Shown piece by piece: positions 1 through 11,677 of a stretch of 11,677 nt of DNA. A program made the translations under genes and the position numbers. The stretch covers positions 1 through 11,677 of IMG/VR virus record IMGVR_UViG_2681813234_000006; one strand, 5' to 3'. Position 1 is the first letter of the stretch; each line of letters begins with the position of its first letter. This stretch comes from a virus. Lineage: Duplodnaviria > Heunggongvirae > Uroviricota > Caudoviricetes. Under the pieces are notes generated by a model. It searched no databases. It worked only from the letters and a program-made list of their open reading frames with translations, and was not told the origin of the DNA.

Positions 1-254
1 CCGTCGCCCCGCCGAGCGCCACAGCAGTGCTGGAACCGGATAAGGGTTCAGACATATTTATTCTCCTGTAAATAAAAAGGACCATCAGCGGCCCCGTAAC
101 TGACATTTTATTAACGTTTGAAGATATGGATATTTATCAGGGTTTACCGTTTTCTGAACCCTGGATATGTTAAGCATTCAGCCCGCCAGTGGTGGGACGC
201 TGGCTCATCATAGAGAAAGAGGGATGGCTGATTACCTCTGATCAGGGAAATCAC

Positions 255-524
255 ATGCAGTTTTTACATAAAAGAATGCATTTAAATGCAGGAGATACGG
301 TAGTGGTTGACTGCTCTCATCAGTGCAATATTTTGCTGATGACAGATACAAACTTTAATAACTACCGCAACGCAAGAAGCTTTCATCATCACGGTGGTGG
401 CGGTTTTTTTCAGAGATTACCGGCCCACCTTCATGTACCGCATTCAGGTTACTGGAATATTACAATTGATTTAGGAGGCGGAAGTGCAGCTATTCGGCAC
501 TCCATTTCCGTCATCCCAGCATAG
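255..524 (+). CDS. Hypothetical small protein, possibly DUF1883-like (family name from memory only)
   Basis: ATG at 255-257 preceded by AGGGA (243-250). The track ORF starts at 189 but has no obvious RBS. Translation has a GGGGFF motif and a conserved-looking Cys/His pattern. Only sizeable plus-strand ORF not antisense to a better minus-strand gene. Confidence 0.35.
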   Translation: MQFLHKRMHLNAGDTVVVDCSHQCNILLMTDTNFNNYRNARSFHHHGGGGFFQRLPAHLHVPHSGYWNITIDLGGGSAAIRHSISVIPA

Positions 525-835
525 CAACTCGCCTTTAGCCTGAGTAAATGCGTCCTCAAGGACGGCAACGAGTCGCAGTTGCGTGCCGTCCTTTACACAG
601 CGTGTGCAGGCAATACCTTCAGAACTTTCATTATGCCGAGCTCATACAATTTCACCATTTTGTTCAACTACAACGCTCATAATTTTCTTACACTTTTTTA
701 ATAAACCACACCAATAACAACCATCACCGATACCTTTTGTATGCTGTTATTTTGCATTACGGTGTAACGGCAAGAGCCCCCTCCCCGCCCTGAAAGGCTC
801 TGTGTTTTTGATGTGCGCCTGATGTGGCTCAGATA

Positions 836-859
836 CAAAAAAGCTCGCAGTAGCGAGCT
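836..859 (-). terminator. Rho-independent terminator downstream of the 883..1161 gene
   Basis: 7-bp stem agctcgc (842-848) / gcgagct (853-859) with 4-nt loop agta; on the minus strand the hairpin is followed by a run of 7 U (plus-strand A-run 835-841). Confidence 0.55.
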
Positions 860-882
860 AACAGAAAATATGAAGCATGTTT

Positions 883-1161
883 TTATCCACGAAGTATGAC
901 GTTGAATTCATCCATACCGACACGGCTGGCTATCTCGTTGTATTCCTCAACAAGAGCCAGCAATTCTGAATTAGCAGCCATGAACTCTTCAAAAACCTTA
1001 TGGATGGCATCACTGTTTAATAAAACAATGTTCTTTCCTGAAAGGCGATCAGGGGTAGAAAATATAACTGTCAAACGACTAAAGGCCCTGGCTCGTTCAG
1101 CATTAACATCCTCAATACGCTGCAACAAGCTGGAGCACCTGGAAATATCATCAATATTCAC
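883..1161 (-). CDS. Hypothetical 92-aa protein, function unknown
   Basis: GTG start (complement of cac at 1159-1161) preceded by AGGAG about 5 nt upstream on the minus strand; soluble, non-repetitive translation; terminator immediately downstream. Confidence 0.45.
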   Translation of the reverse strand: MNIDDISRCSSLLQRIEDVNAERARAFSRLTVIFSTPDRLSGKNIVLLNSDAIHKVFEEFMAANSELLALVEEYNEIASRVGMDEFNVILRG

Positions 1162-1450
1162 TCTACTCCTGCCATCTGGATGATAATCATTTCACGGAGA
1201 GAAGCACTCAGAAGTACCACTGAAGTATAGCTGGTGACCAGCTACTTACACATCTATTGCCATCCTGCTGATGATAAGTCGACATTAGCCCTTCTGTCTA
1301 TAAACGAAACAAAGGATAAGTTCAGGTTTTAAACACACTGCCAGGATAAAGTATTGTATACAGTATAGAAGAGCGTTATTGAATGACATAAAAAACCAGA
1401 CCTAATCCCTTATCCGGAAGATATATCAAATAAACGGGGAAAATGTATTA

Positions 1451-1517
1451 AGATGGCGTTCCTATTCTCTCCATCCCTGATGTCCACGTAACTCGTTATA
1501 GAATCAGAACGCCATCT
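1451..1517. repeat. Imperfect 18-bp inverted repeat (16/18 match) separated by 31 nt, inside a ~500-bp non-coding gap
   Basis: agatggcgttcctattct (1451-1468) versus agaatcagaacgccatct (1500-1517); the reverse complement of the second arm differs from the first at 2 positions. Confidence 0.4.
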
Positions 1518-1679
1518 GAATACACACAAAAAAGCTGGCTTCACACCCTCCAGATGTGTGAACGCAGTACCCGACCACGTGCTTTCGCAACCAGCACAAA
1601 TCATTTTAAAGCATCGAAAAACGATCAGAATATATCAGAACTTCCTAGCATCCTGCTTGGCTTAGATATTAATCGAGGA

Positions 1680-2765
1680 TTAGCTCCTGTTCTTATCTAA
1701 TTGTGCATTTCGCAATTTATCGTTCAGCACCAATATTTCACCAACTGTTTGTTCAAAACGCCCGGACTCAAGTTCAACCCCAATCGTGCGACGCCCCAAT
1801 CCCATTGCTGCTTTTATTGTTGCCCCCGATCCCATAAAAAAATCCGCAACCACATCCCCCGGACGACTGCTGGCAGAAATTATCTGACGCAACATATCCG
1901 CCGGTTTTTCGCAGGGATGCTTACCCGGATAATACTGCACGGGCTTATGCGTCCAGACGTCCGTATAAGGAACGGCGGCCGATACAGAAAAATAACGCCG
2001 CAGAGATTTGTATTCCTCAAGCAGACTGGCATATTGCCGGTTCAGTTCACTGTATGTGCTGACCAGTTGCTGGTGTGGCGTTGCCAGCTCCCCACGCTGG
2101 TGCTTTTCTTCTGCAACACACGCGAACAGCGCCTGCAGTTTTCTGTAATCAGCTTCGTTCGGTAACTGCCACTGACAGGTACCAAACCAGTGCGACACCA
2201 TGTTTTTCTTTCCGGTGGCTTCCGCTATCTGTTTGGACGTTATCCCCAGTGATTCACGCGCATCACGGAAGTAAGAAATCAGCGGGGCCATGACGTGTTG
2301 TTTAAGCTCGCGCTCCTTTGCCGCATAGCCATCATTTTTTGGCTGGTATGGCCCCTGATAATGTTCGGCAAACAGAATGCGCTCTGTTGCCGGGAAATAC
2401 GCCCGCAGGCTTTCTTTGTTGCACCCGTTCCAGCGTCCGGATGGCTTCGCCCAGATAATGTGGTTCAGCACATTAAAGCGCTCACGCATCATGATTTCGG
2501 TGTCAGATGCCAGGCGATGACCACAGAACAGGTAGAGACTTCCGGCAGGTTTCAGTACCCGCCAGAACTGAGCCAGACACTGATCCAGCCATTTCAGGTA
2601 ATCATCGTCGCCCTTCCACTGGTTATCCCAGCCCTCGGGCTTCACTTTAAAGTATGGCGGGTCTGTGACTATCAGATCGACAGAGTTTTCCGGTAAGGTC
2701 TGGATAAATTCCAGGCAATCAGCGTTGATTAACTCACAACTGGATATTTTTACAGTATCAACCAT
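1680..2765 (-). CDS. DNA N6-adenine / N4-cytosine methyltransferase, beta class (motif IV precedes motif I), orphan
   Basis: N-terminal SVDLIVTDPPYF (catalytic motif IV, DPPY) and C-terminal GDVVADFFMGSGATIKAAMGLGRRTIGVE (AdoMet-binding motif I); ATG at 2763-2765; no restriction endonuclease candidate adjacent. Confidence 0.9.
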   Translation of the reverse strand: MVDTVKISSCELINADCLEFIQTLPENSVDLIVTDPPYFKVKPEGWDNQWKGDDDYLKWLDQCLAQFWRVLKPAGSLYLFCGHRLASDTEIMMRERFNVLNHIIWAKPSGRWNGCNKESLRAYFPATERILFAEHYQGPYQPKNDGYAAKERELKQHVMAPLISYFRDARESLGITSKQIAEATGKKNMVSHWFGTCQWQLPNEADYRKLQALFACVAEEKHQRGELATPHQQLVSTYSELNRQYASLLEEYKSLRRYFSVSAAVPYTDVWTHKPVQYYPGKHPCEKPADMLRQIISASSRPGDVVADFFMGSGATIKAAMGLGRRTIGVELESGRFEQTVGEILVLNDKLRNAQLDKNRS

Positions 2766-2915
2766 AGATCAATAAGCACTTCTCTGATAGGCTCATACCG
2801 CTTTTGCGCAAAGCAGATGGGCCTGAGGTTTGCTTGTGACCCTAACGCATGAGCAGATGGCTGGCAGGTGCCGCTAACACCCACCAGCCGCCCATTACCA
2901 CAAATGAAAAAACCT

Positions 2916-3113
2916 TCACTGCGGAAGGCGTCTGTAACAACCGAACTGATAATCTGCCAGACCCGCCATAACAAGCTGGGTCAGTATTAACTGACAGCGT
3001 TCGCGTGAAAGGTAAGTATTCTGCGCAATTTCCCCAACTGTTGCCGGTTCAGTGACGCTTAATTCATTAAACACCACTCTGGCTGTTTCGGTCATATCCT
3101 GCTGTTTTAGCAT
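2916..3113 (-). CDS. Small (65 aa) putative winged-helix DNA-binding protein, possibly PapI/FaeA-like
   Basis: ATG at 3111-3113 (alternative ATG at 3093-3095); segment TVGEIAQNTYLSRERCQLILTQLVMAGLA matches the spacing and hydrophobic pattern of the PapI helix-turn-helix ([28 protein letters not shown], recalled from memory). Confidence 0.4.
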   Translation of the reverse strand: MLKQQDMTETARVVFNELSVTEPATVGEIAQNTYLSRERCQLILTQLVMAGLADYQFGCYRRLPQ

Positions 3114-3286
3114 GTCTTTTTCTCTTTATTGGTTAACGTGACATACCAATAACTCTTGTCGAAAAAGCCAGCAAGCTGAAAGACCGGTATTAATAACCAC
3201 CTGCACATTTTATGTACCGAACCATTTTTCTGGCATAAAAAACCTCTCAATGGCGGGCGGTAAAAATCTTTGTTACTCAAGAAATT

Positions 3287-4000
3287 TTAACGCACTCTGA
3301 CTGTATTAATTTCAAAATCATTAATATTTCCGCTATTAAATATAACGAATTTCTTACCCCCACTCCTGTATGATTTCGATAACACCAGACGATCATCATA
3401 ACGCGCAATAATGTAATACCATACATTCTCATAGTGGATCGCCTGATATTCCCTCTTAAACTGTGGTTTGTACCAACCGGCAATAAGAGAGAATGCCCAG
3501 AAATAAATCATAAACCCAGCCATCATGAACTCAATTCGGTGATGACGAATAAAAGACATTTCCGAAAAACATTTGACTGAAACAAGTCTTCTTCCAAACC
3601 TGACAAAAAGCGTGATTGTAAAGGCAGCAAGAATGCAGAAAATCAGTACATCTGGCTCAACATGCTGATGAATTACCGAAAACTCCAGAACAGGTGGAAT
3701 AAAAAGCAGCAATATCGCGAGAAAAAGCCGGATAAAACTCAAATTTTGTATATTGCGCTTTTGTTTTATGCCCAAAAAGAAAACAATACCAACTCCCCAT
3801 CCAATAAGGAATATAACGATAACTGTCACAGCATAAAACAAACTTCGTGCTACATCATCGACACCAGCCCCGACAACCCACCATGGAAAGCCATAGTAAA
3901 ATGAAGTACCCCATCCATAGAAATAAGCGCTTCCCCATCCTAGACAGCCCATATAAGCAACAAAAAGTGAAGAGTTTCTGAGCAGAGCACTGTCATCCAT
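3287..4000 (-). CDS. Polytopic inner-membrane protein of unknown function, AT-rich, first gene after the late promoter/terminator (moron position)
   Basis: 237 aa; about 5 hydrophobic segments rich in aromatic and Gly residues (e.g. GWGSAYFYGWGTSFYYGFPWWVVGAG, AVTVIVIFLIGWGVGIVFFLGI); short hydrophilic C-terminal domain; codon usage visibly AT-biased compared with flanking genes. Confidence 0.7.
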   Translation of the reverse strand: MDDSALLRNSSLFVAYMGCLGWGSAYFYGWGTSFYYGFPWWVVGAGVDDVARSLFYAVTVIVIFLIGWGVGIVFFLGIKQKRNIQNLSFIRLFLAILLLFIPPVLEFSVIHQHVEPDVLIFCILAAFTITLFVRFGRRLVSVKCFSEMSFIRHHRIEFMMAGFMIYFWAFSLIAGWYKPQFKREYQAIHYENVWYYIIARYDDRLVLSKSYRSGGKKFVIFNSGNINDFEINTVRVR

Positions 4001-4141
4001 AGTAACACCATTAACAACTCAAAAATATCAACACATATTACATAACAAATTGGATTCCATGCAGTCAAGGGGCGTCATTGATGGAGAAAGTATTGGCACA
4101 ATCATCATCACGTTTAATGTCTATGCCATTTTTTTGGGGAT

Positions 4142-4166
4142 AAAAAAAACCCGCTCGGTCACGGGT
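4142..4166 (-). terminator. Rho-independent terminator downstream of Q (tR'-like)
   Basis: Stem aacccg (4149-4154) / cgggtt (4163-4168) with 8-nt loop; on the minus strand the hairpin is followed by a run of 8 U (plus-strand A-run 4142-4149). Confidence 0.5.
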
Positions 4167-4219
4167 TTTACTAGCTTTGCCATCACGTATAAAAACGGCA
4201 AAATATCAGATTCACACGA

Positions 4220-4248
4220 AATATATGCCTTTTTATCTACTTTTGCAA
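4220..4248 (-). promoter_or_regulatory. Sigma70-type promoter immediately after the Q stop codon (pR'-like late promoter, probable qut region)
   Basis: On the minus strand: -35 TTGCAA (4248->4243), 17-nt spacer, -10 TATATT (4225->4220); sits between the Q stop (4256-4258) and the terminator at 4142-4166. Confidence 0.45.
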
Positions 4249-4255
4249 TACTTTG

Positions 4256-4921
4256 CTATGAAAATGCCGCCTTTTGTTTTGAACGTGTTCCCTCCACCAA
4301 CAATAAAGCTTCACCATCCAGCCGATGAAAAATGTGTTTCATTGCAACCCAGTGACCAGTAAATGTCTTGGACCAGTTTTTGGTTGTTACTCCCACCAGT
4401 AACGCCAGTTCCTGGTATTCGTAACCTTCCCCACCAAAAAGCTCAGCTTTTACCGCCTGCGCCGCCAACCAGATCAACGTCTTCAGGCGCACCAGCGTTT
4501 TTCCTGCAATTTTTCTGGTACCGGATTGAGCATTAAATTCAGTCCACGCCCACTGCGTTATCGCGATCTGATGCTCCCAGCAAATGCTACCGCTGTAACA
4601 CCACAGCAGCCAGGCTTTATGATGTTCTTCAAGAGACAGAACGGCGCGTCGCCATGATGATGTCGAAAACTCAACCGGACTGACCAGGGCAATTGATGAA
4701 CCTTTCGCCAGCGATTGCTTTCCCGGGATCGGTGGATTATCCAGCGTTACTATTTTTCCAGTGACCTTATCGCGGTACCGGATTTTTTTACGTCTGTAAC
4801 GCCCTGTATTGAACATGGCATTCTCCTGCCAGGCTTCAAGCTGACCTTTTGTTGCTCCACTCAAATCAGCGGTGGCGATCGTGAGCTGCTCACGCACAAA
4901 CTGTAAATACTGGTTATTCAT
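4256..4921 (-). CDS. Q-like late-gene antitermination protein
   Basis: Position directly downstream of rusA and upstream of a promoter/terminator pair, as in lambdoid phages. Track ORF begins at GTG 4927; the ATG at 4919-4921 forms an ATGA overlap with the rusA stop (4918-4920). Family assignment is by context and overall resemblance, not by a recognised motif. Confidence 0.6.
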   Translation of the reverse strand: MNNQYLQFVREQLTIATADLSGATKGQLEAWQENAMFNTGRYRRKKIRYRDKVTGKIVTLDNPPIPGKQSLAKGSSIALVSPVEFSTSSWRRAVLSLEEHHKAWLLWCYSGSICWEHQIAITQWAWTEFNAQSGTRKIAGKTLVRLKTLIWLAAQAVKAELFGGEGYEYQELALLVGVTTKNWSKTFTGHWVAMKHIFHRLDGEALLLVEGTRSKQKAAFS

Positions 4922-5277
4922 GCGCACTCCAGTTCTGTGATTTTTATCCCCAGCCGACCACCGGGAATAACCTGACCGCGCATAATATTAACTTCATCAA
5001 ACTGCTCATCGTCGATAATCAGTCCCGCATGTGTCAGTACATCCAGTGGTGCTTTCAGAATATTGTCCAGGTCACGACGGCGCTTATCCGGCGGCTCTGC
5101 AATAATTTTTATTGCCAGCCTTCCGGACAGATTTAATTTCAGTCGCTGCTGGCGAACAATAAGCGCCACATCCCGGCGATAACGCTCCCCTGCTTTTGAT
5201 ACAAAATATGTGCTGCCACGACGACGCCAGTAGGTATTCACCGTCGGCGGGTAAGGCAAAACAAATTCTATCCCCAT
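4918..5277 (-). CDS. rusA: Crossover junction endodeoxyribonuclease RusA (Holliday junction resolvase)
   Basis: 119 aa; clear similarity to E. coli RusA along the whole length ([11 protein letters not shown] versus [40 protein letters not shown] versus [40 protein letters not shown] versus GGRLELTITEM); ATG at 5275-5277 with AGAGG RBS. Confidence 0.9.
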   Translation of the reverse strand: [119 protein letters not shown]

Positions 5278-5289
5278 CAGTAACCTCTT

Positions 5290-6339
5290 TTATCCAAGCA
5301 CGCCGGTTGCAAAGGCGTGATCAAGAAAACGAAAAATTAAATCAACCTGAGAACCATGCTTTTCTTCGAACGCCAACGGATCTGCATGAAGCTCGTTATG
5401 ATGTTTACGACACAACGGTAACGTAAAAATATCGTGGGCCTTTGTTCCCATTCCACCCTGACCGTGACCAATCAGGTGATGGGGGTCGTCGGCTGGTTGA
5501 CCACAACACGCACACGGCTGTGTCTTCACCCAGCGCGTATATTTCTCATTTACCCAACGGCGACGTTTAGGTCGCCTCATGAAAGATTCAGGAGACTCCG
5601 GATCAACGGTAATGCTGACCACCGTCTTTTCCTGTGGCGGGATTTGTTGCTGGTGGACATGAGGCAACGGCGCAAGATTTTTTGTGCGCTGCTTCAGTAT
5701 GCTGGTGGCGCTCTGCTCTCCCGGTACGATGTCACTTTCGCGATACACCGAGTGGATTTTTTCCGCACGTAATCCCAGAGAGCGACGTAATACTGCCTCC
5801 GGTAACGCGTCCGCCACCTGATTGCAGACCGCCCACCAGGATAATTCAGCCAGCGATAATTCCCGCTCTTGTGTGCCATTCATTGCGTGACGTATGACGT
5901 CAATCATCCAGGCTGACAGATTCTGCTGAGCAAGTTGCTCCAGTGAATCAGATGTCTGCTCCCGCAGCTGGTTGTCGCAGTGCCAGCACAACACCATCGC
6001 GCCAGTACCGTAACGATGTATGACGGTTTCGCTGTGATGATAATCGCCGTGTGGCCACTGGCAGGATTTCACGTGACGTAATAACCAGTCAGACAGAGCG
6101 CCTGCACCACCTACAGCACGGATCACCCGCTCATCGCTGAAAAATGGCAGTAACGATTTGTCTTGCGCCAGCGGCTGGCGAACAGCGGGAACCTCTCCTG
6201 ATGGCAGCGCCCGCATGTTTTTCGGTTCCGGCTCCACCAACACCCGGGTATTGTAAAATACCGGCATGGATTCACGGCCCGGATTAAGGACCACCAGCCC
6301 GAGTTCCGGTACCAGAACAGGTCGAAGTAATACCCGCAC
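5290..6339 (-). CDS. DUF968-like phage protein with C-terminal Cys/His (HNH-like zinc-binding) motif; resembles K-12 Qin YdfU by recollection
   Basis: 349 aa; C-terminus QPCACCGQPADDPHHLIGHGQGGMGTKAHDIFTLPLCRKHHNELH; GTG start at 6337-6339 with GGAGG 5 nt upstream; 1-nt gap to the upstream gene stop. Confidence 0.7.
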   Translation of the reverse strand: MRVLLRPVLVPELGLVVLNPGRESMPVFYNTRVLVEPEPKNMRALPSGEVPAVRQPLAQDKSLLPFFSDERVIRAVGGAGALSDWLLRHVKSCQWPHGDYHHSETVIHRYGTGAMVLCWHCDNQLREQTSDSLEQLAQQNLSAWMIDVIRHAMNGTQERELSLAELSWWAVCNQVADALPEAVLRRSLGLRAEKIHSVYRESDIVPGEQSATSILKQRTKNLAPLPHVHQQQIPPQEKTVVSITVDPESPESFMRRPKRRRWVNEKYTRWVKTQPCACCGQPADDPHHLIGHGQGGMGTKAHDIFTLPLCRKHHNELHADPLAFEEKHGSQVDLIFRFLDHAFATGVLG

Positions 6340-6340
6340 G

Positions 6341-6619
6341 TTACCTCCAGATACGTTGCTGGTATGTGCGGGATGGACGCGGTGGACGTTCGGAATAAGG
6401 GAGCCTGACAGAGATTATCCAGTGACGATAATCGAGGCTGAGGGCTTTCTTAACCTCGTATCCGCGCCTGCCGTAACACTGAATCAGCCATTCGGCCTGT
6501 TCTTCAGTGCATGGGGGATGCTGGTACCAGTCAGATTTGAATACATGAGAACGCCGCCCGTGCCTGCTGGCAGGGGCGGCAGAGTTATCCGAATTGTAAA
6601 ATCTGGTATCGTGCGCCAT
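6341..6619 (-). CDS. Hypothetical 92-aa phage protein (occupies the slot of rem in K-12 Qin by synteny; identity not verified)
   Basis: ATG at 6617-6619 (MAHDTRFYNSD...). The longer track ORF begins at a TTG inside the terminator hairpin and is unlikely. Tightly coupled to the DUF968-like gene. Confidence 0.5.
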   Translation of the reverse strand: MAHDTRFYNSDNSAAPASRHGRRSHVFKSDWYQHPPCTEEQAEWLIQCYGRRGYEVKKALSLDYRHWIISVRLPYSERPPRPSRTYQQRIWR

Positions 6620-6691
6620 CAGTTTTCTCTGCTGACGCAGCAGGTGCCAGTTGTTCAGGCTGGCATGTGGATTGTAAACCAGGATGCTCAG

Positions 6692-6717
6692 AAAAAACAA
6701 AACCCGCCGTAGCGGGT
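6692..6717 (-). terminator. Rho-independent terminator downstream of the XRE-ImmA gene
   Basis: Stem acccgc (6702-6707) / gcgggt (6712-6717) with 4-nt loop cgta; on the minus strand followed by UUUUGUUUUUU (plus-strand A-tract 6692-6701). Confidence 0.6.
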
Positions 6718-6721
6718 ATGC

Positions 6722-7825
6722 TCAAACAATCTGAAAAATATTTCTTGGATTTGTAATAGGTCGATTGATGGAGAACAACTCACGAATTAAATCTTGACTC
6801 AAGCCAGTTTTCATAAGAATTCTTAACCAAGTTGCATCATCCAGCATATCAATCGCTTCGGACAGCATACTTGGTTCTTCGGGGCGCAAAAGTTCATCAC
6901 CTGGTTCAACTCTCGTGTACCCTCTAGAATTAAGATGCATATAGCCAGTTCTTGCCTGTTCCTGGGTCAATAGTCCTAATGCACTGGCTCGATAAATACA
7001 CATTTTAAGGCTAATTTTCCATCTAAGCTTAAATTCAACCAGAGCACTCCAATCGAATTGCTTACCTCGTATTCGTGGAAATTCTTTAATGAAAGATAGC
7101 CTAGGAACCAATAAGGCGCTAGAAAAGTGATCAGCTTGTGATTCCGTAAGTTTATCACCAGTAGTTATGCCCTCATGCATTACTAAATGCCCTAACTCAT
7201 GACCTAAATCAGAGCGAAATCTACATATGCTTTTTTTTACATTGTTCCTGATAATAACAGGCCTGTTATTGTGAACAGTGAATGCATCAACACGATCATC
7301 GACTCCCGTAACATGCGCAACGATTACCCCCAAACTCTCCGCCAATTTCACCATTGATGATATAGGACCAAGACCTAGATTCCATGCACGGCGACAATCT
7401 TCTGCCACTCGCTCAATATCATTCGGGGTAAGTAATTCGGTTCCTGGGTGCTCTGGTATGTTGACATCAGGGAATTCGATTTCACCTTCAACAGCAGAAA
7501 TTATAATATTAAGAATCTCAGCCCTGGCCAAGACACTATTAGTCAGCGTTTGAGTCCTAGACTTCTTACTCCGAAAATGGCAAACATCGCTTTCCAGAGC
7601 ATATTTTCGCTCAGTAAATAGAAAATCGGACTTAATCATAAGAGCTGAGGCTATTAACTCCAGGCATTGCTCTGATGGCCTAAATCCCTTCTCCAATTTG
7701 CTAACGAATTGCTTTGTTTTGCCAATTTTTTCGGCCAACTCTTCACATGAAAGCCCAACAGCCATTCTTGCTAGTTTGAGCTTATCGCCTCGATACTCAG
7801 TGAAGTTATTCACCTGATGTTCCAT
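6722..7825 (-). CDS. Fusion protein: N-terminal XRE-family helix-turn-helix + ImmA/IrrE-type (M78/COG2856) zinc metallopeptidase
   Basis: 367 aa; N-terminal GDKLKLARMAVGLSCEELAEKIGKTKQFVSKLEKG (XRE HTH pattern); central HExxH motif in SDLGHELGHLVMHEG; ATG at 7823-7825; overlaps the upstream gene by 20 nt; AT-rich. Confidence 0.85.
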   Translation of the reverse strand: MEHQVNNFTEYRGDKLKLARMAVGLSCEELAEKIGKTKQFVSKLEKGFRPSEQCLELIASALMIKSDFLFTERKYALESDVCHFRSKKSRTQTLTNSVLARAEILNIIISAVEGEIEFPDVNIPEHPGTELLTPNDIERVAEDCRRAWNLGLGPISSMVKLAESLGVIVAHVTGVDDRVDAFTVHNNRPVIIRNNVKKSICRFRSDLGHELGHLVMHEGITTGDKLTESQADHFSSALLVPRLSFIKEFPRIRGKQFDWSALVEFKLRWKISLKMCIYRASALGLLTQEQARTGYMHLNSRGYTRVEPGDELLRPEEPSMLSEAIDMLDDATWLRILMKTGLSQDLIRELFSINRPITNPRNIFQIV

Positions 7826-8456
7826 TACTGCTCACATCCAAATTTTTATCCTTCGTACGCCGACGAAGAGACACCTTATTAATCTCCGCTTCACCAGGGA
7901 GTGTGTTACCGTCAAGGGGCATAAGTGGCATTGATGCTGTAGATTGATGAGAAACCATACTAATCTGAGCACCATAGGTATTAAACCCAACAAGAGCCAC
8001 CTCCCAACGAGGCAGTGTGGACTCTAATTCACCATCTCCCTCTTCGGATAAAAATGGCTCCGCTATGACTCGCCATGTAATATCTTGCTCAGCCTCAACA
8101 TCACCAAACAATGAAAGCTGCTCATGCTCTACTTTATTTCGACGCAGGCGATGTTTCTTTTTGGGGTTATTAATGCAATCTTTGGTAAATTGTAGCGGAA
8201 CTTTATTTAAAGCAACTACATAGTCCAACCCCTTGGAAATCATCTTAAGACCAGGAATTGCGCCTTCATTTTGAATAAGATGGTTTCTGACCCAATCATA
8301 AGCCCTTACACCTTCAGACCAGTTGCTGTCTAATACGTGCTTATGATAGTACAACTGCTCAAGTACGTTAGCGATCTCCGCCAACAACTGGCGAACATTG
8401 CTTTCAGCAAGATAAGGTTGAAATTCCCAACAAGGAGCTAACTGATTTTCATTCAT
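7806..8456 (-). CDS. Hypothetical 216-aa protein of unknown function; first gene of the two-gene cassette (candidate effector or toxin)
   Basis: ATG at 8454-8456; TAA stop at 7806-7808 lies inside the next gene's first codons; no recognisable catalytic motif; acidic C-terminal tail; AT-rich codon usage; only a weak SD but a near-consensus promoter upstream. Confidence 0.7.
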   Translation of the reverse strand: MNENQLAPCWEFQPYLAESNVRQLLAEIANVLEQLYYHKHVLDSNWSEGVRAYDWVRNHLIQNEGAIPGLKMISKGLDYVVALNKVPLQFTKDCINNPKKKHRLRRNKVEHEQLSLFGDVEAEQDITWRVIAEPFLSEEGDGELESTLPRWEVALVGFNTYGAQISMVSHQSTASMPLMPLDGNTLPGEAEINKVSLRRRTKDKNLDVSSNGTSGE

Positions 8457-8490
8457 TTCAAGTTTCGCTTTTTTTAGAATTCGTAAACCT

Positions 8491-8520
8491 TATATTTTCG
8501 CATTTTCCTGTTTTTGTCAA
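8491..8520 (-). promoter_or_regulatory. Sigma70 promoter of the two-gene cassette
   Basis: On the minus strand: consensus -35 TTGACA (8520->8515), 17-nt spacer, -10 AAATAT (8497->8492; AATATA with 18-nt spacer is an alternative); located between the upstream terminator and the ATG at 8456. Confidence 0.45.
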
Positions 8521-8530
8521 CCAGACTAAT

Positions 8531-8553
8531 GCAAAAACCCGCCGAAGCGGGTT
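8531..8553 (-). terminator. Rho-independent terminator downstream of hok
   Basis: 7-bp stem aacccgc (8536-8542) / gcgggtt (8547-8553) with loop cgaa; on the minus strand followed by UUUUUGC; the hairpin core is nearly identical to the one at 6702-6717. Confidence 0.6.
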
Positions 8554-8621
8554 AAGTGCGGGTGCATTGAGGATTCCTGACTCATCAGAGGTGGCGAGGG
8601 ATTTCTCCCTCGCCTGGTCTC

Positions 8622-8777
8622 TTACTCCTCAGGTTCGTAAGCTGTGAAGACAGCGACCTCCGTCTGGTCGGTTCGGATTCGTACCTCGCAGAGGTCTTTC
8701 CTCGTTACCAGTGCCGTCACTATGACGGTTAAACAGATGACGATCAGGGCGATTAACATCGCCTTTTGCTGCTTCAT
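8622..8777 (-). CDS. hokD: Hok/Gef family membrane toxin (type I toxin), HokD/RelF-like
   Basis: 51 aa MKQQKAMLIALIVICLTVIVTALVTRKDLCEVRIRTDQTEVAVFTAYEPEE, differing at one position from HokD/RelF as I recall it; ATG at 8775-8777 with AAGGAG about 9 nt upstream. The track ORF has a 19-codon in-frame upstream extension from 8834. Confidence 0.85.
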   Translation of the reverse strand: MKQQKAMLIALIVICLTVIVTALVTRKDLCEVRIRTDQTEVAVFTAYEPEE

Positions 8778-8834
8778 AGCCTGCTTCTCCTTGCCTTTCG
8801 GCACGTAAGAGGCTAACCTAGATTTGCCGTTCAT

Positions 8835-9030
8835 AGATTGAGCCTCAGATTAATGTTAAGCGTCTTGCAGGACGCGTAATGTTAACTGGGGCTTTTCTCT
8901 ATCTGCCTTTGGTGTTCATGCCTGAGGCAGATAGCCTCAAGCACCCGCAGCAATTCTACTTAAGTTAGATAAGTTTTTCTACGGTATTCTCTCTGCGTCC
9001 CGTAAATAAAGTCTCGGCTCATCATTTTTA
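8835..9030 (-). promoter_or_regulatory. Structured hok upstream/leader region; possible site of hok translational control or an antisense RNA (not demonstrated)
   Basis: 9-bp inverted repeat ctatctgcc (8899-8907) / ggcagatag (8926-8934); additional 7-bp complementarity gcctcag (8842-8848) / ctgaggc (8922-8928); a 9-bp stem-loop ggcgaggga/tccctcgcc (8593-8614) lies just 3' of the hok stop. Confidence 0.3.
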
Positions 9031-9294
9031 TCACAGGTGCGAGGAAAATATATAGCGCCCTCCATCAAGCATAACGAAATACATTTTCCATTCATCGCCA
9101 TTCTTCAATTTAATACGAAGACTTTCCCCGCGAGTGTATTTATTAAACAACTGTTCCGATGTGCTAGTAAGAGGTATTTTTACCGTTATTACAACTACTG
9201 CACCACCATTTAATTCTCGAAGTTCAGCATCCGCACACACAAAAGATGAATAAATGTTATGCTCTGGGTAATCAACAAGTAACAGCATATTCAT
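9031..9294 (-). CDS. Hypothetical 87-aa protein, AT-rich, upstream of hok
   Basis: ATG at 9292-9294 with AAGGA RBS; soluble; no recognisable family; not RelE-like. Confidence 0.6.
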   Translation of the reverse strand: MNMLLLVDYPEHNIYSSFVCADAELRELNGGAVVVITVKIPLTSTSEQLFNKYTRGESLRIKLKNGDEWKMYFVMLDGGRYIFSSHL

Positions 9295-9423
9295 TCCTTA
9301 AATATAGCAACTAAAACAAACAACGATTTAACAGTCGGAATTTTTATATAACATAAGAACGTTGCAAGATCTATCCAGATGAAGCCCCTCCATCCCCCTG
9401 ACTCATTACATGCTTTTACTATC

Positions 9424-9843
9424 TCACCGTAAAACATCCTCCTCGCTTACCAGCCCGTTCTGATTCAGATGCGCCATTACCTGATCAGGCAAACTGCTTA
9501 AACTATTGGCGTACTTTAATGAGAGGGACAGTCGCTTAATCCACATTGTCAGCTCAACAATGAGCCTGTTTTTGACCTCTCGCTCATCCAGAAGAACCAT
9601 TGCAACCTCTGGATTAAAAGCTGCAATAAATTCAGCATTGGCATATGCCTGGGCACCTGTTTCAGTCAGGCAGTTAACATAACATTCTGCAATCACGCCG
9701 CCAGCATCTCCCTTCCATTTTTGACAAACAAAAACCCCTGTTAAATTGCCGTGCTGGTTAACTGACGCATGCCCTACGATGTAGCGTCCTTTAGTTTCTT
9801 TCTCTGCTGCTTCACGCAGCGCCTGATAGTCAATCTCGCTCAT
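9424..9843 (-). CDS. Ead/Ea22-like family protein
   Basis: 139 aa; N-terminal IDYQALREAAEK and central NAEFIAAFNPEVAMVLLDE resemble the motifs I recall for Ead/Ea22-like prophage proteins; ATG at 9841-9843. Confidence 0.55.
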   Translation of the reverse strand: MSEIDYQALREAAEKETKGRYIVGHASVNQHGNLTGVFVCQKWKGDAGGVIAECYVNCLTETGAQAYANAEFIAAFNPEVAMVLLDEREVKNRLIVELTMWIKRLSLSLKYANSLSSLPDQVMAHLNQNGLVSEEDVLR

Positions 9844-10016
9844 TCATCGCCCCACTCATCACAATATGCTTCGACCGGAGTTTTTCCTGCTTCATAGTCA
9901 TCACGCCATACTTCAGCATCAGCAGCACTTCCACTACGTAACTCTGCATATTCCATTAACAGTTCATGCCATTCTTCAAAACTGACGTTGTATTTAGTTG
10001 AACCAAAATCAGCCAT
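9843..10016 (-). CDS. Small acidic protein (57 aa), absent from the supplied ORF track (below its size cutoff)
   Basis: Hand translation MADFGSTKYNVSFEEWHELLMEYAELRSGSAADAEVWRDDYEAGKTPVEAYCDEWGDE; ATG at 10014-10016 with GGAGGA about 9 nt upstream; TGA stop (9840-9842) overlaps the ATG of the Ea22-like gene (ATGA coupling). Confidence 0.5.
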
Positions 10017-10059
10017 TTTGTTCTTCCTCCTCGTCTTTTATTTCATGATATGAGTAATT

Positions 10060-10272
10060 TCAGTAGTTAAAGAAAATTTCTTTTGCTTCGTCATGAATTT
10101 CATCAGGTGTCGCGTCATCATCCACTTCGAATACATCCTCAAAATCTCCACCAGTTATTCCCGTTTCAATAATTATTTTGAATTTTCGTATTTCACTACC
10201 GCCCTTTCGGACGGCCTCCTGATGTTTTGAGGGTGCAGGCATCCCTCCGGTTAAGGACTCTATTTTATTCAC
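10060..10272 (-). CDS. Hypothetical small protein (60-70 aa), start uncertain
   Basis: Track ORF starts at GTG 10272 with no SD; an internal ATG at 10240-10242 is preceded by GGAGGG at very short spacing; acidic C-terminal half; no family recognised. Confidence 0.35.
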   Translation of the reverse strand: MNKIESLTGGMPAPSKHQEAVRKGGSEIRKFKIIIETGITGGDFEDVFEVDDDATPDEIHDEAKEIFFNY

Positions 10273-10347
10273 AGTGCTGAATTTAATTATTCAGATTTGG
10301 ATTATGCTTTCTCTTTCACTTCACCAAGTTCCGATTATTAATTTGGC

Positions 10348-10770
10348 TCACAACAGCACCTCCTGAAAGTTTCCCCGATAAAACGCCAGTACACGCTGCA
10401 TAACTTCGCTTTTCCGGCACTCACGACAAATTATGTTCTGACACCTGTCGTAGCGGCGTATTTCTCCGTCTGGTAATGACCAGATAAGGTCCGGATCAAC
10501 CACAGATGTTTTCTTCAGATTTGCCCTTGAGAGTTTTTTGCGGGCATTTTGCCAGTCCTTACGCGCCTGCGCTGACGGGAATAACCCGTAACCAGAGTTG
10601 TATACATCGCCGCTGGCAACCAGCTCTCTTGCGAGAACGCTCATCAGATATCTTGTTGCCCCAGTTTTAGCTTCCAGTTGTCGTAACGTCTCTCGCCCGC
10701 TCTGGCGTACGAGATCAACAATCTGCCCTTTAATTTTTTCCCGCTCTTCCTGTGTAAATACTTTTGCCAT
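10348..10770 (-). CDS. ren: Ren-like protein (lambda Ren family) with an N-terminal extension
   Basis: C-terminal IICRECRKSEVMQRVLAFYRG resembles lambda Ren LVFKECRQSAAMKRVLAVYGV, and TGATRYLMSVLARELVASG resembles TGATVTSINQAAAKMARAG (both recalled); ATG at 10768-10770 with GGGGAGGG RBS (track ORF starts at TTG 10836). Confidence 0.6.
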   Translation of the reverse strand: MAKVFTQEEREKIKGQIVDLVRQSGRETLRQLEAKTGATRYLMSVLARELVASGDVYNSGYGLFPSAQARKDWQNARKKLSRANLKKTSVVDPDLIWSLPDGEIRRYDRCQNIICRECRKSEVMQRVLAFYRGNFQEVLL

Positions 10771-10786
10771 AAGCCCTCCCCTGGAA

Positions 10787-11581
10787 TCACTTTTCCGACA
10801 CAATACGACTGGAGGAATCAACAATCTGTCGGACAATATCCCGGTGCTTGTTCAGCTCCCGCAGCGCGGCGCAGACTCGCTCCCACTTCTGGACATGACT
10901 TTTCGCCCGGCGCAGTTCGCGGTTTGCCATATGCAGCGATGGTAAAATCAGGCCATTGGCTCGCGTTTCAGTGAACGATGGCAACGACTGCACAATGTCC
11001 CCCACAGTATCTGTTTTAATTTCTTCCTGTGTTGCCGCTTCCTGTACTGGTAACGCAACACCGGCTGGCTGAGAAAAGGCTTTACCAGGTGTTTTCTCTA
11101 CCGATACAACTTTCGGCTCTGCTGGTAAATTTTCCCCGGTTTCTTTTACCCGCATCCACTTACACCCCTTCCCCTGTCCCAGCTTAATCACCATGCCATC
11201 GCGGCAAAGCTTTTCCATCGCAGAAACCAGCGACCTGACGCAATCAGCACGCCCCACAGCAATTGCAATCTCAGCGGTGGTCATTGCCCCACCATGAGCA
11301 AGTGTGGACAGGATGTCGCAGCGATTCAGTGGCTCACGCTCTTTTCTGCTGACCACCGGACGGGATTTTCTTTCCACTTTACACACCGTTACTTTTTTTT
11401 CTTTCACGCCAGTTTGTCGTTCTGAAACAGACCAGTAACCATTAACCGACACAACTTCTCCCAGCTCTTCGTACTCCCTCAGCATTTTAATCGCCTCTGC
11501 AGGTTCAATGCCCAAACTGGCAGCAAGCTCGGTGCACGTCACCTTTTGCATCGCTTTTAACGTATCAATCAACGTTTCCAT
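10787..11581 (-). CDS. Hypothetical prophage protein with two predicted winged-helix-like DNA-binding segments; not lambda O or P
   Basis: ATG at 11579-11581 with GGGAGA RBS (track start at 11584 is TTG); two segments with HTH-like patterns (VTCTELAASLGIEPAEAIKMLREYEELGEVV and MTTAEIAIAVGRADCVRSLVSAMEKLCRDGMVIK). Confidence 0.6.
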   Translation of the reverse strand: METLIDTLKAMQKVTCTELAASLGIEPAEAIKMLREYEELGEVVSVNGYWSVSERQTGVKEKKVTVCKVERKSRPVVSRKEREPLNRCDILSTLAHGGAMTTAEIAIAVGRADCVRSLVSAMEKLCRDGMVIKLGQGKGCKWMRVKETGENLPAEPKVVSVEKTPGKAFSQPAGVALPVQEAATQEEIKTDTVGDIVQSLPSFTETRANGLILPSLHMANRELRRAKSHVQKWERVCAALRELNKHRDIVRQIVDSSSRIVSEK

Positions 11582-11677
11582 CAAAATTTCTCCCGTTAAA
11601 AATTATTTACCAATCTCAAACAAAACTTATCCCCTGAACCCTGGTGGAATTTCGGTGTCCGGTTCAGAAATATGATT

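Follow-up and report, generated by a model that had tools for sequence, protein, structure and literature searches.

A probable optional cargo gene of the STM1630/TfpB family behind the Q gene of a lambdoid Escherichia coli prophage

Lambdoid phages have a well-known slot for cargo genes, or morons, between the antitermination gene Q and the lysis genes, directly behind the late promoter pR' and the terminator tR'. Two described genes come closest to the one reported here: a gene of phage 434 that lies in this slot and is annotated 'putative membrane protein', and STM1630 of the Salmonella chromosome, which is the only experimentally touched member of the family. We analysed 11,677 nucleotides (nt) of a Caudoviricetes virus record (IMG/VR IMGVR_UViG_2681813234_000006, positions 1 to 11,677; hereafter, the window), in which the first gene after Q encodes a 237-aa inner-membrane protein of the STM1630/TfpB family (PF27470; phrog_1521) at 3287-4000. 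All window features given with coordinates lie on the minus strand unless noted. The gene cannot be called new, as its family is named in both Pfam and NCBI annotation and a homologue is annotated in phage 434; its sequence, family and arrangement are already in public databases.

The membrane gene as probable cargo behind Q

The open reading frame (ORF) starts with ATG, five bases 3' of a GGTG Shine-Dalgarno sequence (4009-4006). Its guanine-plus-cytosine (GC) content is 0.389 and that of its leader 0.357, compared with 0.49 for Q, 0.49-0.53 across the Q, RusA and DUF968 genes and 0.457 for the whole window, a departure from the neighbouring genes in the manner of a moron. The ORF list contained no minus-strand ORF of at least 40 aa between the terminator behind Q and this ATG, and the original prediction of an AT-rich 237-aa ORF as the first gene after the Q terminator was thereby confirmed. 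Pairwise dN/dS was 0.14-0.19 for the whole protein and 0.025-0.055 for residues 1-57, and all 12 compared copies (phage, plasmid and chromosomal) were intact. Judged from these low ratios and intact copies, the gene is under purifying selection and encodes a working protein rather than debris.

The gene and its 145-nt leader form an AT-rich, apparently mobile cargo module of 0.9 kb (4157-3272), seen as a homology block in strain E300010 (query 144-1029). The joint between this module and the upstream Q module falls at the terminator hairpin: matches to the Q module stop at about 4142-4146, matches to the gene module start inside the terminator at about 4156-4157, and the latter end 15 nt past the stop codon. 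The gene upstream of the module in E300010 is an unrelated Q (PF03589), and tRNA-Ile/Arg genes follow the module. Conversely, in MSHS 133 and PPompW the Q/promoter/terminator module is followed directly by tRNA genes and the membrane gene is absent. In general, genomes with the Q module and without the membrane gene carried tRNA genes, followed by holins or terminase, and about half of the E. coli records matching the region had the Q module only.

The gene was found behind three Q families. A BLAST comparison assigned the upstream ORF to one of two Q types in 68 of the 77 IMG/VR loci that had such an ORF, and a direct scan revealed a third type (DUF1133/PF06530) upstream of another copy (L093). 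Downstream, at least ten kinds of context were observed, the commonest being the 65-aa ORF and methyltransferase gene also found in the window (35 of 70 IMG/VR loci clustered). Given that the gene is missing from MSHS 133 and PPompW and present behind three Q families, it behaves as a moron by presence and absence, and its absence from prophages sharing the Q/promoter/terminator module argues against a core late gene, in line with what had been proposed. We conclude that the membrane gene is very probably an optional, non-lysis cargo gene of the STM1630/TfpB family. The suggestion that it occupies the slot used by stx is supported by a 69%-identical copy located directly after stx1-like AB genes in one IMG/VR contig.

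That contig (2859677112_000002; L103, 3162-8017) encodes, in order, Q (PF03589), stx1-like A, stx1-like B, the membrane gene and a lysozyme region. The A gene product has a RIP domain and the B gene product an SLT_beta domain, and their DNA is ~86-87% identical to stx1 of Stx1 phages.

The Q gene of the window (4256-4927; PF06323, E 7e-90) is of the Q82-like type, its product being 76% identical to the phage 434 Q annotated 'Q82-like'; a PDB sequence search returned no solved relative. Directly after it is a late-promoter-like site equivalent to pR' (4248-4220), with TTGCAA at 4248-4243, a 17-nt spacer and TATATT at 4225-4220. This had been described as near-consensus, which is overstated, since the hexamers match the consensus at only 9 of 12 positions. 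The match alone says little, because a scan of the region found five such sites when 4.2 were expected by chance; the site itself holds up better, as both the -35 and -10 hexamers are retained in six diverged Q-module copies, including those of phage 434 and O157:H7. Its Q dependence is inferred from position. In lambdoid pR' sites a sigma-dependent pause element is expected in the initial transcribed region, where a -10-like hexamer, GATATT (4207-4202), provides a candidate for that part of the Q-utilisation site; related Q-module copies have GATATT or GGTATG at this position.

An intrinsic terminator equivalent to tR' follows (4169-4146), with a 9-bp stem, a 6-nt loop and a run of about eight T extending to 4138. 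The stem is preserved in the same six diverged copies despite changed stem and loop bases, and the annotators of phage 434 placed a terminator at the equivalent position. The order of a sigma-70-like promoter right after Q and then an intrinsic terminator is that of a Q-dependent promoter region, and the likeness to lambda pR'/tR' that had been noted for promoter and terminator is supported.

Between the terminator and the gene, the leader contains a conserved block, CCTTGACTGCATGGAATCCAATTTGTTATG (4070-4041), with TTGACT at 4068-4063 and TG-T-TATGTA at 4047-4039. Across 17 diverse copies the block reads CTCTTGAC(T/G)...TTTGTTATG and is near-invariant, even at 55% protein identity; it is better conserved across copies than the coding sequence. 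The block may be an activator-dependent promoter or operator. An RNA element was also considered and rejected, as the leader gave no Rfam match and RNAalifold no consensus structure. The mapped promoter of STM1630 lies ~190 nt upstream of its ATG and is unrelated to the phage leader.

The protein family, its predicted structure and its copies outside phages

All 104 homologue clusters were pre-labelled with this family (PF27470.1, shown as 'TfpB'), and the equivalent protein of strain MEI7BO1-21 is annotated by NCBI as 'STM1630 family protein'. Significant full-length matches to family members were obtained. The PHROGs match was to phrog_1521 (E 1e-84), a family of unknown function. Scans of the protein against Pfam-A and NCBIfam gave no match, the local copies apparently being without the PF27470 model, and membership in PF27470 is therefore based on precomputed labels and homology. 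The name TfpB may come from the Moraxella pilin-inversion ORF tfpB; literature searches for its origin (TfpB with Moraxella; PF27470) found nothing. One homologue (P0069) was identified as STM1630, with 48% identity over 100% of the length, and the published deletion primer encodes its N-terminus.

The family is small, with 74 representatives at 50% identity among 1.84 billion proteins. Close members were detected in E. coli, Shigella, E. albertii, Salmonella, Citrobacter, Klebsiella, Enterobacter, Cronobacter and Yersinia, and a recognisable gene copy was present in 1197 of 5426 complete E. coli genomes, or about one in five. Pasteurellaceae and Neisseriaceae have full-length members at 20-30% identity, frequently with two or three in one genome, and there the genes adjoin housekeeping genes such as dnaK, a P-II gene, mqo and a sigma factor gene. 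Most named members belong to animal-associated Enterobacteriaceae, Pasteurellaceae and Neisseriaceae. For distant members, cluster look-ups returned 'hypothetical protein' labels only, and enterobacterial sequences dominated a second, word-indexed protein search that used a mixed profile, so that little was gained.

The membrane character that had been proposed was supported by hydropathy, with four peaks >1.6 and one charge-free aromatic/glycine helix (residues 12-34), and by an AlphaFold model with five membrane-length helices. A model built from 20 sequences was unusable (pLDDT 61.7), and the one used here was built from a 64-sequence alignment (pLDDT 77.9, pTM 0.70). It places helices at residues 3-36, 47-78, 89-111, 116-135 and 155-181, and strands at 184-190, 193-201, 204-208, 218-222 and 231-235, the latter forming a five-stranded C-terminal beta domain (residues 182-237; 3457-3290). 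K/R residues are abundant in loops 2 and 4 of the 64 sequences (net +1.7 and +2.3), but not in loops 1 and 3. Because this charge puts loops 2 and 4 in the cytoplasm, the topology is probably N-in/C-out, which would leave loop 1 and the C-terminal beta domain in the periplasm.

The most conserved part is helix 1 with the first, predicted periplasmic loop (residues 9-57; 3976-3830), an aromatic/glycine-rich region with the motif LGWGSAYFYGWGTSFYYGFPWW..G.DD.ARSLFYA. Within the enterobacterial members, this part reaches a column conservation of 0.88-0.89; Enterobacteriaceae show hardly any variation in helix 1 and loop 1, whereas helices 3-4 and loop 3 vary freely. Across the wider family of 64 sequences only Y26, Y28, R52 and G175 are invariant, the last of them in the final helix directly ahead of the beta domain. 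This group does not look like a catalytic set. Members thus share a common architecture, i.e., the N-terminal aromatic motif, variable membrane helices, a last helix with the invariant glycine, and a C-terminal beta domain. A lipoprotein signal was rejected, given that YMGC does not form a lipobox and its cysteine lacks conservation.

Foldseek searches with the model gave no significant match among solved structures (PDB) or predicted viral ones. The best PDB matches, all non-significant, were MscS structures (E 0.2-2) and small SH3/LSm-like barrels; such model-based resemblances are a lead on architecture only. A family-profile sequence search of PDB returned no match.

Several copies lie outside phages. 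On IS-rich plasmids of enterotoxigenic E. coli (ETEC; L004-L009, 3987-6714), a 75%-identical copy is divergent from eltAB, flanked by insertion sequences (IS) and near the STb gene, and its homology to the window begins just 5' of TTGAC in the leader block. The phage-type leader block is retained there, which suggests that the region of the heat-labile enterotoxin (LT) contains part of a prophage Q-to-lysis interval. On the Shigella/EIEC invasion plasmid, an intact gene of 57% identity with an unrelated leader is located ~5.5 kb from spa40 (Shigella flexneri pINV; L120, 6001-6717), and 106 Shigella plasmids in total have a copy. In E. coli UTI89 (L011, 7001-7891), a frameshifted, N-terminally truncated remnant is followed by tRNA-Arg, lies near iroBCD and is flanked by IS4 fragments; its setting is a pathogenicity island, and it resembles a leftover of a prophage late region. 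No phage genes were found in a search of the surroundings of the copies in Shigella pINV, ETEC plasmids, Salmonella and UTI89.

A sub-lineage typified by phage 434 is linked to lpxR, which lies on the opposite strand, in phage 434 (L119, 2666-5717), O157:H7 (L121, 3657-6707) and Citrobacter rodentium. The phages have ylcG and Q between the two genes. On the C. rodentium chromosome (L003, 4863-6717) the copy is directly beside lpxR, which is split, and no Q is present.

Possible functions of the membrane protein

The functional evidence comes from Salmonella. STM1630 DNA is bound by H-NS, and the gene is expressed within macrophages and in medium inducing Salmonella pathogenicity island 2 (SPI-2) (PMC6785131 Text S1); co-regulation with SPI-2 is also listed for it (PMC2639726). 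In calves and chicks, signature-tagged mutants were reported to be attenuated, and deletion in strain 4/74 increased intra-macrophage replication (PMC6785131 Text S1). In our analysis, these data point to host interaction over phage exclusion.

Together with the mostly animal-associated distribution of the family, the STM1630 data are the reason why we prefer a lysogenic-conversion role in the envelope. We put the probability of the whole favoured reading, optional cargo combined with a host-interaction role in the envelope, at roughly 45%; taken by itself, the envelope role, which leans on the comparison with Salmonella, is possible and no better than tentative. Under this reading, Q would be made after induction, and the layout suggests that Q-modified polymerase from the late promoter would pass the terminator and transcribe the membrane gene ahead of the lysis and morphogenesis genes. 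The TTGAC-containing leader block may add independent, regulated expression in the lysogen, and the AT-rich DNA of the module would probably be silenced by H-NS, as reported for the Salmonella homologue. In the protein, the constrained aromatic/glycine helix 1 and loop 1 are predicted at the periplasmic face and the ~55-residue beta domain in the periplasm. Since no conserved acid/base or nucleophile set is visible, the protein would most likely bind or organise an envelope component rather than catalyse a reaction. By doing so it may alter envelope behaviour relevant to animal-host association, e.g., colonisation or intracellular growth.

A number of observations weigh against this reading. 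The STM1630 phenotypes are weak or inconsistent: the mutant has no growth defect in LB, the -10 box was destroyed in all ST313 strains tested (PMC6785131 Text S1), and hypermotility seen in a screen (PMC4219756) was missing from the phenotypes that clean deletions confirmed (PMC4534456). The association with virulence loci (stx, eltAB, sseJ, pINV and lpxR) could merely reflect the phage origin of those islands, and some distant members are from non-animal sources, e.g., Mangrovibacter. The leader block has a good -35 and lacks a convincing -10, both candidates (TTATGT and TG-T-TATGTA) being poor. A terminator was looked for after the membrane gene and none was found (z -0.83), leaving the classical moron layout incomplete. 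Finally, the topology is predicted, and the C-terminal domain placed in the periplasm is net positively charged.

The original prediction named superinfection exclusion, abortive infection and envelope modification as candidate functions. None of these gained positive support, there being no PADLOC match, no conserved catalytic residues and no fold match. The protein probably does not act in lysis, nor is it likely to be a dedicated anti-phage system. Superinfection exclusion is a fair rival, and a lysis function, an LpxR-linked enzyme and a channel are less likely.

In superinfection exclusion or abortive infection, the protein would block entry of incoming phage DNA or kill the infected cell and so protect the lysogen. 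Optional AT-rich prophage cargo in the classical moron slot would suit such a role, as would an inner-membrane protein whose conserved parts are predicted to face the periplasm. Known exclusion proteins, such as P22 SieA, T4 Imm and HK97 gp15, are also small proteins of the inner membrane that lack wide homology. Phage 434 has a family member, and the prophage studied here does carry defence cargo in the form of a candidate RmrT/RmrA-like pair. However, the membrane protein matched none of the PADLOC-DB 2.0 families at E up to 0.01, and in Salmonella and C. rodentium the family is represented by conserved single genes at non-phage chromosomal loci, in Pasteurellaceae by genes beside housekeeping genes. 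The Salmonella member is SPI-2-regulated with infection phenotypes, and if the Q-dependent promoter were the sole source of transcript, an uninduced lysogen would contain no product to exclude a second phage. On balance, we regard exclusion as unlikely.

As an envelope-modifying enzyme, or as a partner of LpxR, a lipid A deacylase, the protein would instead alter lipopolysaccharide, lipid A or another lipid-linked glycan. The 434-type copy has lpxR beside it in phage 434, in an O157:H7 prophage and, with no Q present, on the C. rodentium chromosome, which is consistent with a partnership, and the aromatic-rich motif at the predicted periplasmic face would suit glycan or lipid binding. But no lpxR was detected among the ORFs of the window prophage, and the linkage is explicable by common descent of one sub-lineage (L109 vs L003, dN 0.21). 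With Y26, Y28, R52 and G175 as the only residues invariant in 64 sequences, a catalytic set is not evident, and the model has no structural match to a transferase or hydrolase. This explanation appears quite improbable.

A holin, antiholin or lysis-timing regulator of the late operon could also be a multi-pass membrane protein encoded first on the late transcript, and the stx1-associated copy is just upstream of the lysozyme region. The protein nevertheless has 237 aa and five helices, and no holin or lysis homology was found in Pfam or PHROGs, where the one match is to a family of unknown function; the original view that it is not holin-like was correct in this respect. The prophage has its own lysis genes, with two holins and a GH108 endolysin ~3 kb further downstream in MEI7BO1-21, so the gene does not adjoin an endolysin. 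It is also absent from prophages with the same Q module, and Salmonella, C. rodentium, Shigella pINV and Pasteurellaceae have intact standalone copies away from phages. By family match, size, endolysin adjacency and presence in all relatives it does not belong to the lysis cassette, and a lysis role is very unlikely indeed. Just as improbable is an oligomeric channel with an MscS-like layout of membrane helices followed by a small beta domain, for which the top Foldseek PDB matches and the long last helix with the invariant G175 ahead of the beta domain would speak, given that there is neither a PF00924 match nor a significant structural match and that the beta domain is predicted to be periplasmic, opposite to its side in MscS.

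A broader extension of the favoured envelope role is that the STM1630/TfpB proteins are an unrecognised class of envelope factors, spread by lambdoid phages and virulence plasmids among enteric pathogens, whose invariant periplasm-facing aromatic motif and small beta domain would tune how the bacteria behave in the animal host or exclude phages by a new mechanism. We consider this rather doubtful. If true, the class would have spread via phage 434, O157:H7 prophages, the stx1-like prophage, LT plasmids, Shigella pINV and the Salmonella sseJ locus.

Neighbouring genes and comparison with known systems

The window is part of a lambdoid E. coli prophage that is transcribed mostly from the minus strand. 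A 1.1-kb query (window 3200-4300) matched chromosomal prophage DNA of several E. coli strains at 100% identity, and strain MEI7BO1-21 has 99.9% identical DNA across it. First in transcription order in the window are the DUF1627, DUF977, DUF7167 and Ead/Ea22-like genes, followed by a type I toxin gene of the hok/gef family (8622-8834; PF01848, E 3e-21), the ORF of which, as listed, probably exceeds the real peptide in length. Between hok and the DUF968 gene, two overlapping ORFs encode an RmrT-like protein of 216 aa (7806-8456; PADLOC RmrT, E 1e-24) and an RmrA-like protein of 367 aa with HTH_3 and Peptidase_M78 domains (6722-7825; PADLOC RmrA, E 1e-105), a candidate toxin/antitoxin-type anti-phage pair of the prophage. 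DUF968 and then RusA genes precede Q.

Downstream of the membrane gene are the 65-aa winged-helix-like ORF (2916-3113; phrog_331, with a weak TrmB match) and the gene for a 361-aa N6/N4 DNA methyltransferase (1680-2765; PF01555, PADLOC MTase_II E 8e-153), which no restriction partner accompanies in the window. A 92-aa phrog_2873 ORF (883-1161) lies between the methyltransferase and the expected lysis genes, and a DUF1883 protein is encoded on the plus strand (189-524).

Among the described systems, STM1630 (SL1344_1560) resembles the window gene in its 48% identity, its 238-aa product of the same architecture, its AT-rich DNA and its membership in PF27470. It differs in being chromosomal, between steB and sseJ, with no prophage around it and no Q upstream. 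The phage 434 gene CPT_434_68 (OL657226) encodes a 55.7% identical protein after a Q82-like Q and a terminator, and its leader block is conserved. In phage 434 and the O157:H7 prophage the order is lpxR (opposite strand), ylcG, Q82-like Q, terminator, membrane gene and DUF3927. Phage 434 continues from DUF3927/TciB to a small membrane protein, a SASA esterase and a pinholin cassette, and the O157:H7 prophage from DUF3927 to a 132-aa opposite-strand ORF and a class II holin cassette, whereas the window has the 65-aa ORF and the DNA methyltransferase in this position.

P22 SieA, T4 Imm, HK97 gp15 and lambda RexB are, like the product of the window gene, known as prophage-encoded, non-essential inner-membrane proteins. 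They show no sequence or profile similarity to that product (PADLOC, Pfam and PHROGs), whose family, unlike them, has conserved non-phage chromosomal members. MscS channels share the succession of helices and a small beta domain and were the top, non-significant structural matches, but there is no sequence match, MscS has three helices rather than five, and the membrane side predicted for the beta domain is the opposite one.

The closest parallel in arrangement is the classical Q-to-lysis cargo, i.e., stx, the nanS-p esterase and tRNA arrays, with which the window gene shares the slot after pR'/tR', its optional presence and its deviant composition. Like that cargo it is placed for Q-dependent read-through, and one copy is directly after stx1-like AB; it differs in encoding a membrane protein and not a secreted toxin or esterase. 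As a sequence feature it is ordinary, a catalogued cargo gene in a well-known cargo slot. Its relatives are beside or near major virulence determinants, namely stx1-like AB, eltAB, the Shigella type III secretion system plasmid and Salmonella sseJ, and its purifying selection and a position in which induction of the prophage would turn it on make it a reasonable and cheap target for work on lysogenic conversion.

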